Shown here piece by piece: positions 492-25,796 of a stretch of 25,796 nt of DNA. The notes under the pieces are model-generated. The model saw nothing but the letters and a program-made list of their open reading frames with translations, was not told the DNA's origin and did no database searches. Made by a program: the position numbers and the translations under genes. The stretch's first letter is position 1. Every line of letters starts with the position of its first letter. The DNA is from Candidatus Micrarchaeota archaeon (GTDB lineage Archaea; B1Sed10-29): the NCBI GenBank assembly GCA_964388265.1, contig CAYLXZ010000010.1, positions 1 through 25,796 of the forward strand, in the 5' to 3' direction.

Positions 492-746
492 ATGGGAAAA
501 GTAATGGTAGTATTCAAAATATATCCAGAAGAAGGAAAAGATGCAAAAGACATAATGGATCAACTCGACGGAATGAAAGACATAAAGAGCGCAAAGAAAG
601 AACCAGTAGCATTCGGACTAAACATAGTGAAAGCCGGAGCACTACTCAAAGACGATGACGACCCAGACAGAGTACAAAAAGAACTAGAAGAAGAAATCGA
701 AGGATACAGAAACATAGAACAAGGCGAAGCAACACTAATCTCCTGA
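492..746 (+). CDS. ef1b: Archaeal translation elongation factor 1-beta
   Basis: MGKVMVVFKIYPE...EPVAFGL motif, 84 aa, SD AAGGAG, synteny with DUF1610. Confidence 0.92.
   Translation: MGKVMVVFKIYPEEGKDAKDIMDQLDGMKDIKSAKKEPVAFGLNIVKAGALLKDDDDPDRVQKELEEEIEGYRNIEQGEATLIS
711..742 (+). repeat. 32-bp direct repeat, copy 1 (attL-like), in the aEF-1beta 3' end
   Basis: AACATAGAACAAGGCGAAGCAACACTAATCTC identical to 2249-2280. Confidence 0.95.
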
Positions 747-786
747 ACTCTGGAGATAACCTAACTCTCACCAAAAACCATAAATA

Positions 787-823
787 GTATTGTCCACACA
801 ATAATAGTATGGACAATAAAAAA
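787..823. promoter_or_regulatory. Dyad site 1, overlapping the ATPase start codon
   Basis: TATTGTCCA(788-796)-N13-TGGACAATA(810-818), directly after the TATA-like AAAAACCATAAATAG. Confidence 0.7.
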
Positions 824-2197
824 TTCGTAGATAGAGAAGATGAACTAAAAACACTAGAAGAACTATACAAATCCAGCAAATTCGAATTCATCTCCATAAC
901 CGGTAGAAGAAGAATAGGTAAAACCGAGCTAGCTAAGAAATTTCTAGATAAGAAAAAAGGAATCTACCTCTACATCTCATTAAGCGATGACAAACAACTA
1001 AGACTACACATAGCTAAACAACTTAACCAAAAACTAGAAACAAGCCTAGTAGGAGAACCTACCTGGAGAAAAATAATAGAAGAACTATTCAAATACAGCC
1101 AAGATAAAAAACTATGCGTTGTAATAGATGAATTCCAACGCCTCCTAAACATAAACAAAGCTGTTCCTTCATTACTTCAAGAAGCAATCGATAACTACAA
1201 AAACTCCTCAAATATGCTCCTCTGTATTTCAGGATCCTCCATCGGAATGATGGATAAGATGTTTAACTCCTCGGCTCCACTCTACGGTCGGAGAACAGCA
1301 AAGCTAAATCTAAAGGCATTCGACTACGAAAACGTGAGGAAGTGGCTGGATGAAGACGAGGAAGAAACGATAAAAAAGTACGCGGTCTTCGGAGGCACAC
1401 CAAAATACCTGGAGTTCACGGAAAATATACCTATCCTTGAAAACATAGGTAAAACATTTCTAAGTTCCGATTCACTACTTTACGATGAACCCGAGACCCT
1501 ATTGAGCACAGAGCTAGATTCGCCTGAAGAGTATCTGGATATTCTGAAGCTCATTTCAATGGGGAAGGAAACTCCGAAAGAGATAACTGACCAGCTGGAA
1601 ATAGAAAGAACCTCCCTAGGTTACTACACCAAGAATCTAAGTAAAAACCTGAATTTAATTAGAAAAACTGTTCCGATAACAGAGAAAGTAAATAAAAGTA
1701 GAAAAACCAGATACAAGTTAACTGATAACTTCTTCTGGTTCTGGTTCCGTTTTATATATCCTCAAAGAGACCAATTAGAACTTGGAAATAGAAAAGGAGT
1801 AAAGGAGAATATCAAAAAAGAGTTCAACACCTACGTTGGAAGAGTATTCGAAGATGTAGTCAGAGAAATTCTGAGAAAGAAGAATGGAAAGAATTTGCTG
1901 GACTGGAAACTGAACCAGTACGAGAAAATAGGTCCATGGTGGGGTCGAGAAGGAGAGGAAATCGATCTATGCGGAGTTTCAAAGACAGACACTTTAGTTG
2001 GGGAAGTAAAGTGGAGTGAAGTAGGCAAGCAAAAGGCTAGAAAACTTCTGAATAAACTGGAAGAAAGTAAATTAGAGAAGAAATCCCAGTACACTATAGC
2101 AGCTAAAGAGTTCTCCAAAGAAGCAGAAAATTTCCTAGACCAAAATGGAGTTATACACTTCTCGGTAAAAGACTTTGATAAAATCCTCCAAAGATAG
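809..2197 (+). CDS. COG1672-type archaeal ATPase with wHTH and C-terminal DUF234/PD-(D/E)xK-like nuclease domain
   Basis: FVDREDEL, Walker A GRRRIGKT, Walker B VVIDEFQ, LYGRRT, GGTPKY, DNFFWFWFRF, FE..V, EIDL, GEVKW. Confidence 0.92.
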   Translation: MDNKKFVDREDELKTLEELYKSSKFEFISITGRRRIGKTELAKKFLDKKKGIYLYISLSDDKQLRLHIAKQLNQKLETSLVGEPTWRKIIEELFKYSQDKKLCVVIDEFQRLLNINKAVPSLLQEAIDNYKNSSNMLLCISGSSIGMMDKMFNSSAPLYGRRTAKLNLKAFDYENVRKWLDEDEEETIKKYAVFGGTPKYLEFTENIPILENIGKTFLSSDSLLYDEPETLLSTELDSPEEYLDILKLISMGKETPKEITDQLEIERTSLGYYTKNLSKNLNLIRKTVPITEKVNKSRKTRYKLTDNFFWFWFRFIYPQRDQLELGNRKGVKENIKKEFNTYVGRVFEDVVREILRKKNGKNLLDWKLNQYEKIGPWWGREGEEIDLCGVSKTDTLVGEVKWSEVGKQKARKLLNKLEESKLEKKSQYTIAAKEFSKEAENFLDQNGVIHFSVKDFDKILQR

Positions 2198-2237
2198 TTT
2201 GTATTGTCCAGACAATTATTGGGCAGACAATACAAAA
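2198..2237. promoter_or_regulatory. Dyad site 2, immediately after the ATPase stop
   Basis: TTTGTATTGTC(2198-2208)...GACAATACAAA(2226-2236); 29/37 ungapped identity to site 1. Confidence 0.7.
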
Positions 2238-2248
2238 AGATAGGGTGG

Positions 2249-2280
2249 AACATAGAACAAGGCGAAGCAACACTAATCTC
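2249..2280 (+). repeat. 32-bp direct repeat, copy 2 (attR-like)
   Basis: Identical to 711-742; followed by T-TAA, so it still reads NIEQGEATLIS*. Confidence 0.95.
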
Positions 2281-2686
2281 TTAATTCCTCTTTAATCTCT
2301 TCTATTCTCTTCCAGTGACTGCCCTTCCAGTACCTTTGACTGCAGCTATTACAGATCCAGCTTTCCTCACCAATTTTTTCGAGTTCTCCGTTGCAGTTAG
2401 GGCACCTCGAGTCCTCTGGAAACCTAGGTTCAAGATCTAAACGGTCAAAAACGCCTTTAATCTGCTCTTCAAAATTCTTAGTGTCCAGAAGAACCGTCTT
2501 TACCTCTGTATTCATCTTCTCTATATCGGTGTCCCTTGTAATTATCACTCTACCTTCCCTTTCCGCTTTATCAACCAGCTCCCTGTCGCTTAATTCATCT
2601 GAAGCTATCTTCGTGTCATAACCCATCATACGCATCCATCGCCCGAGTTTACCGAGCATCACATCAACCAAGAACCTCATCCACAA
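2273..2686 (-). CDS. Mut7-C RNase (PIN-like plus zinc ribbon) protein; start may be ATG 2680
   Basis: FLVDVMLGKLGRWMRMMGYDT, IITRD, RCPNCNG...CNSC, YWKGSHW. Confidence 0.9.
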   Translation of the reverse strand: MWMRFLVDVMLGKLGRWMRMMGYDTKIASDELSDRELVDKAEREGRVIITRDTDIEKMNTEVKTVLLDTKNFEEQIKGVFDRLDLEPRFPEDSRCPNCNGELEKIGEESWICNSCSQRYWKGSHWKRIEEIKEELRD

Positions 2687-2727
2687 CCAAGTTTATATAA
2701 ATCATCCTCATTTATTACCATGATACA

Positions 2728-3330
2728 ATGATAGGGAGATTCCTTCTACTAGCCTACACCGTTGGCCCAGCAGCCGCCATACCCTACGCATCCACACATA
2801 TATCAATGCATTGGATATTTCTATCTCTATTCATAGCCTACACCGCTCCACTCCCTCTACTATTCTTCATTCTAGATAGATTCCACTACCCATCCGCAAC
2901 AAAGAAACACTTAATCCACAGAATGATAGGGAAGCCAGTGAAGAAAGTTAAAGACAAGAACCTAATGAACAAGATCTACTGTTCCTTTGAAGGAAAATGG
3001 GGGTACCTAGGACACTACTTCGGTCTAGGTTCGCTCGCGTTCGCCTTTGGTTTCCTATGGGTAGCGATCCTAGCATACGTATTGAAGCTACCGAGAACCA
3101 GAAGCTACCTCGCAATAGGAATCGGAAACATCATAGGACTCATATTCTGGATATTCATAATAGTTCAAACCAAAGGATTTATAAAGCCAAAACGGGTAAT
3201 TATAATAGTACTTCTAGTAACATTCCTACTCTTCCTATACGGAGAAGCAAGAAAGAGGAAAATTCTCAAGAAACTTAAAAACACGAACAAAGAAATCCTA
3301 TCTCGAATCAAAAGCCAAACAACCAACTAA
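2728..3330 (+). CDS. Integral membrane protein, possibly small multidrug export (COG2426)-like
   Basis: Several hydrophobic segments; AIP near the N-terminus, WGYLG and AIGIG patterns. Confidence 0.6.
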   Translation: MIGRFLLLAYTVGPAAAIPYASTHISMHWIFLSLFIAYTAPLPLLFFILDRFHYPSATKKHLIHRMIGKPVKKVKDKNLMNKIYCSFEGKWGYLGHYFGLGSLAFAFGFLWVAILAYVLKLPRTRSYLAIGIGNIIGLIFWIFIIVQTKGFIKPKRVIIIVLLVTFLLFLYGEARKRKILKKLKNTNKEILSRIKSQTTN

Positions 3331-21452: not shown

Positions 21453-21498
21453 AGAATTTGCCTCCCCTGGTTTCAGCCAGGGGAGGAAGGCTCACCCA
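21453..21498 (+). repeat. 46-bp solo IS200/IS605 end-like hairpin, copy 1
   Basis: AGAATTTG-CCTCCCCTGG-TTTCAG-CCAGGGGAGG-AAGGCTCAC-CCA; identical to 23601-23646. Confidence 0.8.
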
Positions 21499-23600: not shown

Positions 23601-23646
23601 AGAATTTGCCTCCCCTGGTTTCAGCCAGGGGAGGAAGGCTCACCCA
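23601..23646 (+). repeat. 46-bp solo IS200/IS605 end-like hairpin, copy 2
   Basis: Identical to 21453-21498. Confidence 0.8.
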
Positions 23647-24746: not shown

Positions 24747-25796
24747 CTCTTTTGGGTGAGAAGCCCCTATCCTCAATCTTTAATTTAGGTTAGGGATGAA
24801 TCACCATTATTAACTCATAAGAGTTAAAAAAAGGTTAAATAAGAAAAGAACACTAATATAGGTAGACTAAGATGAATTTAAGCTACAAATACCGCTTATA
24901 CCCATCCAAACAAGACAAACAGAGAATGAAGAAACACCTCGACCTATGCAGACAGGTTTATAATCACTTTCTTGAAAAATTGAATGAATTTGAGGAAATC
25001 CCTTCTTGTTATGATTTACAAGAAGAACTGCCAGAATTAAAACAAGAATGGGAAGAACTGCAACAAATACATAGTAAGACTTTACAGATGGTTCTCAAAC
25101 AACTTTACGACAACCTAAAATCCCTATCCAAGAGAAAAAAGAACGGTTATAAAGTAGGGAAACTAAGATATAAGGGCAAAGGATGGTTCAAAACCATAGA
25201 ATACAACCAATCAGGATTCAAACTCAAAAAAACAGAAAACAGACTCGACAAATTACAATTATCGAAGATAGGAGAAATACCCATCAGACTACACAGAAAA
25301 CTCAAAGGAGAAATCAAAGGAGTAATAATCAAGCGAGACAAAGCAGGAGACTGGTACGCAATATTCCAAACAAAACAAGAAACAGAAAAAACAGATATAA
25401 AGAAACAAGATAATGTCGAAGCAGTAGGTATTGACCTAGGAATCCGGAAATTCATAGTAGACAGCGAAGGTAACAGAATAGAACATCCAAAAAACGTAGA
25501 AAAAGCAGAAAAAAGACTAAAAAAAGAACAGAGAAACCTCTCACGAAAAGAAAAAGGAAGCAACAACTACGAAAAACAGAGAAAAAGAGTAGCAAAGATA
25601 CATAAACGCGTGAAAAACAGACGAATGGACTTCCTACACAAACTATCCAACGCCTACGTCAGAAAATACGACAAAATAATACTAGAAAACCTAAACATCT
25701 CAAAAATGGTTCAAGGTAAGATGAACAGTAAGAACACAATAGACTCTGCATGGAGAACATTCATCCAACTACTCCTGTACAAAGCCGAAAAAGCTG
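24747..25796 (+). mobile_element. IS200/IS605-family (IS1341-like, tnpB-only in view) element, left part
   Basis: Subterminal imperfect hairpin GAAG-CCCCTATCCT...AGGTTAGGG-ATGAATCAC (24760-24804) upstream of tnpB; left boundary inferred. Confidence 0.7.
24872..25796 (+). CDS. tnpB: TnpB RNA-guided nuclease (truncated by window end)
   Basis: Manual translation MNLSYKYRLYP...CRQVYN...LSKIGEI...VGIDLG (RuvC-I)...DFLHKLS...ILENL (RuvC-II)...YKAEKA; open to the window end. Confidence 0.95.
   Translation, partial: MNLSYKYRLYPSKQDKQRMKKHLDLCRQVYNHFLEKLNEFEEIPSCYDLQEELPELKQEWEELQQIHSKTLQMVLKQLYDNLKSLSKRKKNGYKVGKLRYKGKGWFKTIEYNQSGFKLKKTENRLDKLQLSKIGEIPIRLHRKLKGEIKGVIIKRDKAGDWYAIFQTKQETEKTDIKKQDNVEAVGIDLGIRKFIVDSEGNRIEHPKNVEKAEKRLKKEQRNLSRKEKGSNNYEKQRKRVAKIHKRVKNRRMDFLHKLSNAYVRKYDKIILENLNISKMVQGKMNSKNTIDSAWRTFIQLLLYKAEKA

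Follow-up and report, generated by a model that had tools for sequence, protein, structure and literature searches.

How does a single gene that brings no recombinase of its own come to lie, with exact borders, in the 3' end of a core translation gene whose length it leaves unchanged? The question is raised by positions 492 to 2,686 of contig CAYLXZ010000010.1, contig C10 of a 725,682-bp, 45-contig, 82%-complete genome of a Candidatus Micrarchaeota archaeon; the window, as the term is used below, is this contig at its full length of 25,796 nucleotides. A 1,538-bp unit, referred to here as the islet, lies between the gene for aEF-1beta (ef1b) and a convergent Mut7-C gene, is bracketed by two copies of a 32-nt direct repeat, and carries one gene for an ATPase-nuclease of the PDC-S27 candidate-defence type. 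The reading that we favor, with a rough probability of 45%, is that the islet is a horizontally acquired, recombinase-less single-gene cassette that entered the 3' end of ef1b by a crossover of the attachment-site (att) type and was recombined in trans or by the host.

The repeat (AACATAGAACAAGGCGAAGCAACACTAATCTC) is found on the plus strand at 711-742 and 2249-2280, with a spacing of 1538 and zero mismatches, and these are its only 2 copies in the whole genome with up to 3 mismatches allowed. By our arithmetic, the chance expectation of a perfect 32-mer pair in 25.8 kb is about 1e-11. Copy 1, the attL-like junction, makes up the final 10.7 codons (NIEQGEATLI plus TC) of the ef1b open reading frame (ORF) as it is currently read (492-746, plus strand; PF00736 match), and the last base and the TGA stop come from the islet side, with ef1b completed as ...LIS-TGA at a length equal to that of ef1b in the relatives. 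Copy 2, the attR-like junction, is followed by the T-TAA of the displaced original ef1b end (together 2249-2284, plus strand) and also holds the TAG stop at 2273-2275, the last 2 codons, and part of the codon before them of the Mut7-C gene (2273-2686, minus strand; PF01927, 3.5e-37). After in silico removal of 1538 bp, ef1b, with its stop at 2282-2284, and mut7-C form a convergent overlap of 12 nt. The initial annotation had described this arrangement, and our repeat search bears out its coordinates and the identity of the copies as well as the Mut7-C stop within copy 2 and the tight overlap regained by deletion. Its further observation that both copies finish ef1b as LIS* is true (C-TGA after copy 1 and T-TAA after copy 2), but since TCN encodes serine for any N, the shared ending is weak evidence, and only the immediate stop codon is informative; by our estimate, a stop directly after copy 1 has a chance expectation of about 5-8%. 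The unique part of the islet, 1506 bp at 743-2248 (plus strand), consists of a 66-nt leader, the ATPase gene, and a 51-nt trailer, with no space for a second gene.

The islet is an insertion into the end of ef1b that rebuilt the gene, as had been proposed, and its unique part is absent from the empty junctions of relatives. In all 3 of the same-family relatives with the locus (G001, G003, and G004), the order is Zn-finger protein, ef1b, convergent mut7-C, TFB, and Rad50, and the junction is empty, with ef1b and mut7-C separated by 20, 5, and 8 nt, respectively. The ef1b genes of these relatives are 82-86% identical to that of the window and end in ...NIEQGEATLIS (G001 and G003) or ...NIEQGEANLIS (G004), and the junction of G003 reads ...ATCTCTTAA, matching copy 2 plus T-TAA. 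Convergent ef1b and mut7-C genes with 3' ends at most 103 nt apart were found at 14 of the 28 Mut7-C loci of the relatives, including order- and class-level ones. None of the 5 same-family genomes has the ATPase gene. With the window genome counted, it is present in 9 of all 41 relatives and in 6 of the class's 31 genomes, where no further loci came to light. Its own genome has a single copy, and the "expanded" distribution that the initial annotation ascribed to such genes is thus inapplicable here.

Two side observations concern the same junction. Within one genus of the order, the space between ef1b and mut7-C is filled by a pair of paralogous coiled-coil genes that are co-oriented with mut7-C (L019 420-1480 in G014, about 180 residues; L021 1912-3188 in G010, about 186 and 261 residues), and neither flanking repeats nor a recombinase were found with these genes. 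In a distant 1.9-Mb archaeon with nine family copies (G036:C1:1185023-1187560; L029, L047), an ATPase paralogue starts 865 bp from the start of Mut7-C in divergent orientation, which is probably chance given the nine copies.

The only ORF of the interval with a family match is 809-2197 (plus strand), which encodes 462 residues, and the sole cargo is, as initially read from the letters, an ATPase fused to a wHTH (winged helix-turn-helix) and a PD-(D/E)xK nuclease. ATPase_2 was matched at residues 6-202 (8e-26) and DUF234 at residues 312-412 (1e-25), with a winged-helix region besides, and DUF234 is listed in the PD-(D/E)XK superfamily in the accessible part of PMC3424549. The Walker A motif GRRRxGKT, DEFQ, E384/D386, and E399/K401 are invariant in 15 homologues, and winged-helix families and Mrr_cat are among the precomputed Pfam matches of homologues. 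Over residues 1-459 of 462, the protein matches the PADLOC profile PDC-S27 (PDLC04985; 1.1e-46). The accessible part of PMC12988326 presents PDC-S27 as a candidate single-gene defense system in which an ATPase is fused to PD-(D/E)xK, abundant in archaea, including Thermoplasmatota, and spread horizontally; the defense activity of most PDCs is unvalidated. By its full-length profile match and its architecture of ATPase plus PD-(D/E)xK, the cargo is a member of PDC-S27 and hence a candidate, unvalidated antiviral defense gene, the defense function being predicted. It differs from what is described in its setting, as the accessible part of PMC12988326 is silent on repeat-flanked single-gene cassettes and on insertion at gene or tRNA ends. 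NCBIfam has no family for this ATPase, and a PDB sequence search returned one Walker-type ATPase (2qen, 8e-07). Family members occur in 149 plasmid records, none of them above 38% identity to the cargo, and distant members occur in 8 phage records. Unannotated fecal "Bacteriophage sp." records of 4.4-7.5 kb (MT838516.1, MT838402.1, MT839760.1, MT838022.1, and MT837173.1) carry family members of 26-33% identity, which indicates that the family also rides very small replicons or contigs.

The gene is foreign to its present host. Its nearest proteins among 5.8 billion have 58-68% identity, followed by a group at 51-53% and then by proteins at 41% or less, and a homologue of 60-63% identity is present in 9 of the 301 genomes of one Thermoplasmata class. 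The third-position A/T skew of the window ATPase gene is 0.38. Values in nine Thermoplasmata homologues are -0.02 to 0.11; the median of the other 15 plus-strand ORFs of the window is 0.77, and the ATPase gene is the second lowest of these 16. Such an intermediate skew argues for a foreign gene that is partly ameliorated to an A-rich host, and it suggests that the gene has resided in such genomes for longer than the flawless repeat would imply for the ef1b site. As a side observation on composition, most plus-strand genes of the window have an extreme A-over-T excess at third positions (skew of 0.5-0.97) that is much weaker in several minus-strand genes, and the window may have a strand-linked compositional bias.

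A promoter/operator-like motif, here called M44, is found at 780-823 (plus strand), overlapping the ATG at 809, and has palindromic half-sites ATTGTCC/GACAAT. The same design, a TATA-like box and then ATTGT...ACAAT palindromes with a consensus of roughly TTTATGTATTGAGTACACAATTATTGTGTAGACAAT, is found directly before the ATG in 11 homologous loci, and each of the nine Thermoplasmata genomes with the homologue has the motif upstream of it. A motif search gave 4 matches versus 0.06 expected. A second copy, M44' (2194-2237, plus strand), lies right after the ATPase stop and is 75% identical to M44; by our reading of the sequences, it is nearer to the Thermoplasmata consensus than M44 itself. The motif occurs at these two sites alone in the genome, and a second copy behind the gene was seen in this islet only. 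M44 is set back 37 nt from its repeat copy and M44' 11 nt from the other, both on the inner side. If the unit closed into a circle, the order would run M44', 11 nt, the 32-bp site, 37 nt, M44, with the crossover site bracketed by the palindromes. M44' may be the leftover of a tandem arrangement in the donor, or the two motifs may be binding sites with a role in recombination. A tandem pair of family genes was observed at G019:C39:813-3544 (L038, L044), with the same 22-nt intergenic sequence (GAGGATTGAGGGATAGTAAAGA) before each gene, and tandem arrays like this one could explain a promoter copy behind a gene.

The Thermoplasmata copies of the gene have housekeeping genes of unrelated function as neighbors (gyrase and histidine kinases; IMP dehydrogenase and cyclophilin; tRNA ligase; ETF and acyl-CoA dehydrogenase). 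In G109, the homologue fills a junction between radical-SAM (rSAM) and cyclophilin genes that is empty, at 139-147 nt, in G274, G298, G170, and G256, which indicates that gene plus promoter changes place there too, without a visible repeat. Elsewhere in this group, a homologue adjoins a tRNA-like T-arm/acceptor segment (GGTTCAAATCCCCGTGCCCCCA; L052 100-310 and 1880-1900, L054 30-165), and in L052, a perfect 16-nt repeat of this tRNA-like end lies 141 nt downstream, with a degenerate third copy after the ATPase gene. The segment was considered as a tRNA target and rejected, as it is called neither by ARAGORN nor by Rfam at the gathering score; the contigs start inside it. For the L052 copy (G041:C128:413-1795; L134/L052), the search reports one in-frame TGA in the ATPase match; the table 11 ORF ends at a TGA at 1793-1795 of L052, and the reported TGA may be the gene's own stop and not a break.

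No enzyme that could have made the insertion was found with the islet. Pfam matched the ATPase alone, with no tyrosine or serine recombinase and no transposase family in the islet, and a profile search of the genome with PF00589 and PF00239 found none elsewhere, whereas control genomes were positive; at 82% completeness, absence from the organism is not proven by this search. The label "integrase-less" in the initial annotation therefore stands for the islet and for the assembled genome. Around 7 Thermoplasmata copies (about 8 kb each) and one neighbor of the G018 islet, 0 of 69 ORFs encode a site-specific recombinase, and one IS481-like rve gene is the sole transposase there.

The format of the islet recurs in the family. 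For 86 family gene copies from the relatives, one further genome contig match, and 80 metagenome loci, the upstream flank was compared with the downstream flank, each taken to a maximum of 800 nt; near-duplicate contigs are included, and the counts are not independent. Copies with a flank of less than 150 nt on either side, matches of less than 330 residues, and duplicate loci of the window were dropped. The null consisted of 500 cross-locus pairs and 86 own-flank reversals (586 in total), with a 99th percentile of 13 and a maximum of 15. A flank-repeat score of at least 17 was reached by 6 of the 86 copies, and a score of at least 14 was reached by 8. The window scored 32 (32/32 nt; unit of 1538 bp; 3' end of aEF-1beta), and five further one-gene units of 1.5-2.1 kb were found. 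Four of them are above the whole null: L072 with a score of 25 (27/28 nt, continuing past a 19-nt indel; 1958 bp), at the first 8 codons and promoter of a vapB-like gene by a PIN gene; L035, from G018 of the same class, with a score of 23 (25/26 nt; 1518 bp) and an intergenic location; L070 with a score of 22 (63 nt at 73%; 1980 bp), where the repeat matches nothing identified; and L069 with a score of 17 (23/26 nt; 2117 bp), at the 3' end of tRNA-Arg(gcg). The fifth, L076 (17/19 nt; 1850 bp), at the 3' end of tRNA-Pro, scored 13, equal to the 99th percentile of the null, and is within the null range. L068, a lower-scoring case that is homologous to L070, has a repeat of about 100 nt at about 72% identity. 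The score of 22 at L044 (22 nt) comes from the shared intergenic sequence of the tandem gene pair described above and not from an islet. Every repeat-flanked unit contains the ATPase gene alone (1518-2117 bp), none of the 20 ORFs neighboring these units is a recombinase, and no terminal motif is common to the islets. Duplications of neighboring tRNA or gene ends, for which the initial annotation suggested a survey, thus recur around other family members, at tRNA ends and at the 5' end of a vapB-like gene. The tRNA 3'-end targets, the very unequal repeat lengths, and the indel in one repeat fit recombination of the att type between a copy on the element and the target and do not fit duplication by a staggered cut, and the indel inside the L072 repeat in particular is a misfit with a simple target-site duplication.

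Under the reading that we favor, a free and probably circular 1,538-bp cassette would have carried the 32-bp match to the ef1b end, and one reciprocal Campbell-type crossover (attP x attB) with the identical ef1b 3' end would have left the repeat on both sides. The cassette side would have provided the new Ser-stop (C-TGA), keeping the length of ef1b, while the old ef1b end, moved 1.5 kb farther downstream, would have kept its overlap with the Mut7-C stop. The cargo would be driven by its own conserved promoter/operator. Because the cassette encodes no recombinase, the crossover was presumably made in trans, and the enzyme might have been the recombinase of a now-absent element, or host homologous recombination might have acted on the 32-bp identity. 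In a more far-reaching version, which we consider doubtful, PDC-S27-type genes would travel as autonomous one-gene cassettes in which a captured piece of host sequence, taken from the 3' end of a tRNA or from the terminus of a core gene such as aEF-1beta, guides recombinase-free insertion by host homologous recombination or by the protein's own wHTH-nuclease at the palindromes.

Several results weigh against a mobile cassette of the favored kind. When IMG/VR was scanned with an alignment of the subfamily, none of the 29 pattern-matched stretches encodes a relative, and a scan with a degenerate ef1b-end pattern gave 0 matches. No helper element was thus found in IMG/VR or in the genome itself, which is weak evidence given the incomplete data. 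At least 78 of the 86 family copies score below 14, i.e., most are without such repeats, and at the 9 closest Thermoplasmata loci with both flanks, no flanking repeat exceeds the null (0 of 9; scores of 9-11). No repeat is visible at the G109 insertion either, where divergence of the intergenic DNA obscures the borders. The 1,538-bp cassette was not found inserted a second time. Neither a circle nor empty-site reads were seen, the data being k=31 contigs; in such contigs (Logan), a 32-nt repeat leaves no diagnostic 31-mer, and the integrated, empty, and circular forms look alike. Finally, the window contains a perfect 46-nt direct repeat at 21453-21498 and 23601-23646, with a 10-bp GC-rich hairpin (CCTCCCCTGG...CCAGGGGAGG) and two copies in the genome, which flanks a KaiC-like ATPase gene and the gene for deoxyhypusine synthase (DHS). 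These two genes are neighbors in four same-family relatives, and in G002, the one relative locus reaching that far, polyprenyl synthetase is also beside the pair; the window is without the second kaiC paralogue that follows DHS in the relatives. The 46-nt repeat was ruled out as a second cassette by this synteny of the enclosed genes, and its presence around syntenic core genes means that a perfect repeat alone is no proof of insertion.

Other explanations of the locus have to be weighed against these data. In a metagenome-derived genome, a free 1.5-kb circle sharing 32 bp with an empty chromosomal site could have been threaded into the contig by the assembler as a loop. The public k=31 contigs of run X1 do collapse at the repeat, stopping exactly at both copies (192-740, 773-1438, 1433-2278, and 2249-3049), as a true 32-nt repeat forces them to do, and their depth is higher on the flanks (9.5 and 8.4) than in the islet (6.6-7.1). 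The depth difference is noise within the scatter of neighboring contigs, as depths of 5-6 are seen in further contigs of that stretch. At its end (25742-25796), C10 has 55 nt that are the end of contig C4 in reverse complement, and an equal amount is shared by several further contig pairs, which suggests that the genome was assembled with k=55. At that value, a 32-nt repeat is no repeat in the assembly graph, and both junctions would have been spelled by reads spanning it, a point about the assembler that is not read-level proof. In run X4, from another study, a contig with an approximately 97% ef1b relative stops inside the repeat and the islet is uncovered, from which we draw no conclusion. 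An artefact of this kind is scarcely credible to us, and even if it were true, the circle would be a mobile element carrying the ef1b site. It is also highly improbable that the gene is ancestral between ef1b and mut7-C and was lost in the relatives by recombination between the repeats. Repeats of 32 bp allow easy deletion, and the ef1b/mut7-C locus could be examined in just a single further genus of the family, but the tight junction is also found in order- and class-level relatives (the 14 of 28 loci above), the nearest kin include Thermoplasmata genes with 60-63% identity and the same promoter motif, and the composition is intermediate and not host-like.

The main rival, unlikely in our view but to be taken seriously, is that the islet is the relic of a larger integrative element: a plasmid or provirus encoding a recombinase of the tyrosine or serine type would have entered the 3' end of ef1b and undergone internal deletion in which the defense gene and the att sites were kept. 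Islets that are flanked by att sites and devoid of recombinase are known decay products, the cis-mobilizable elements discussed below among them, defense genes often travel as cargo, and DNA is deleted quickly from small genomes; the tRNA-like 3' end that occurs three times about the homologue at L052/L054 is also what tandem accretion and decay would leave. Against this, just 66 and 51 nt of noncoding DNA remain, without a pseudogene fragment, and the repeat is 32/32 identical even though 24 nt of copy 2 are unconstrained, which argues for little time for decay. Moreover, the one-gene format of 1.5-2.1 kb recurs in five other lineages, no larger element was found at the ef1b/mut7-C junction in the relatives examined, and the approximately 8 kb around the 7 Thermoplasmata homologues hold no recombinase among the 69 ORFs. 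Improbable, in our judgment, is a self-mobilizing one-gene element whose protein binds the M44 palindromes and cuts or synapses DNA to promote insertion or excision, with the repeat arising as a staggered-cut duplication or through nuclease-stimulated recombination. The ATPase-nuclease is the sole gene product of the unit, its nuclease motif is invariant in the 15 homologues, M44 and M44' stand just inside the two repeats and nowhere else in the genome, and the Thermoplasmata homologues lie in differing housekeeping neighborhoods as gene plus promoter only. However, the protein has no known transposase fold, the palindromes are set off from the repeats, and the islets have no terminal motif in common. 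In the other islets, the repeats vary in length between 19 and about 100 nt and are imperfect or interrupted by an indel, unlike target-site duplications. The spacing between M44 and the ATG downstream of it is also constant in every homologue, as expected of a promoter/operator, and the family is otherwise read as a defense candidate (PADLOC profile; accessible part of PMC12988326). The remaining probability lies with mechanisms other than these.

A cassette acquired by att-type crossover, as we favor, resembles several known systems in part. A site-specific recombinase of its own, the hallmark of integrative elements of the tyrosine and serine recombinase type, is missing, and att-like direct repeats that restore the target gene are present at both borders (32/32 nt, ...LIS-TGA). 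The cis-mobilizable elements (CIMEs) of streptococci are flanked by att sites, have no recombination or transfer genes, and are moved in trans by the integrase of a related integrative and conjugative element (ICE) or integrative and mobilizable element (IME). CIMEs are bacterial, usually several kilobases or more in size, and their definition requires a cognate element that bears an integrase and uses an identical att site. The islet is like them in having att-like repeats on both sides, cargo only, no recombinase, and the 3' end of a conserved gene as its location, but no cognate element on the same att site was found (own genome, IMG/VR, and relatives), the host is an archaeon with a small genome, and the unit is a single 1.5-kb gene. 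Integron cassettes consist of one ORF of about 0.5-1.5 kb, pass through a circular intermediate, contain no recombinase, and are inserted by a trans-acting enzyme. The islet shares with them the single ORF, the lack of a recombinase, and palindrome-containing sites (M44 and M44') at both borders, as well as, on the reading that we favor, a circular intermediate and insertion in trans; it differs in that there is no IntI, attI, or array (no PF00589 and a single unit), that M44 is a promoter/operator before the ATG in 11 loci and not a 3' attC, and that the target is a gene end. Integrative mobile elements exploiting Xer (IMEXs) use the host Xer recombinase at dif and, like the islet, have no recombinase of their own, the host enzyme integrating them; the site here, which lacks palindromic arms, is not dif-like, and the 82%-complete genome yielded no PF00589 gene of the Xer type. 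The islet differs from transposons in having no terminal inverted repeats that abut a fixed-length duplication and no match to a transposase family.

The closest parallels for the target are archaeal. In the accessible part of a survey of integrated elements in thaumarchaea (PMC6563490), 14 of 68 elements target the 3' ends of protein genes, including elongation factor 2, and att direct repeats, a newly introduced stop codon, and an empty site in a relative as validation are described. These elements fall into classes with their own integration or transposition genes, the smallest cryptic one in the same part of PMC6563490 being 2.6 kb with four genes, one of them an integrase. The ef1b unit shares with the elements described there the protein-gene 3' end, the att repeats, the element-supplied stop, and the empty site in a relative, but it is without an integrase and is only 1.5 kb long. 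In short, the unit works like a CIME or an integron cassette and targets a gene end like archaeal elements, and it fails the defining tests of each family. We found no description of repeat-flanked one-gene cassettes for the COG1672/DUF234/PDC-S27 family in the open-access literature, supplements excluded.

One further observation concerns the surroundings of ef1b. A tRNA-Arg(gcg) gene lies at 151-228 of the window, 264 nt upstream of the ef1b start, and is of the same tRNA species as the target in L069 (L069 4875-4953). This match is probably a coincidence, as the 3' end of the window tRNA faces away from the islet.

The usual vehicles of defense genes are large islands, plasmids, and proviruses, whereas here we find a one-gene unit of 1.5 kb whose borders are exact, whose site is empty in relatives, and whose insertion left an essential gene rebuilt. 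The recurrence survey suggests that this one-gene, repeat-flanked format is repeated for the family at tRNA and gene ends in unrelated archaea. If such units indeed move as they are, they would be among the smallest archaeal integrative elements and would offer a concrete route of spread for PDC-S27, one of the most abundant archaeal defense candidates, including into small genomes in which no recombinase is found; were they autonomous as well, this would explain the patchy distribution of the family even into archaeal genomes reduced to symbiont size. If they are instead relics, selection would be keeping the defense gene while the rest of the element is stripped away. In either case, the 3' end of the aEF-1beta gene is marked as an integration site.

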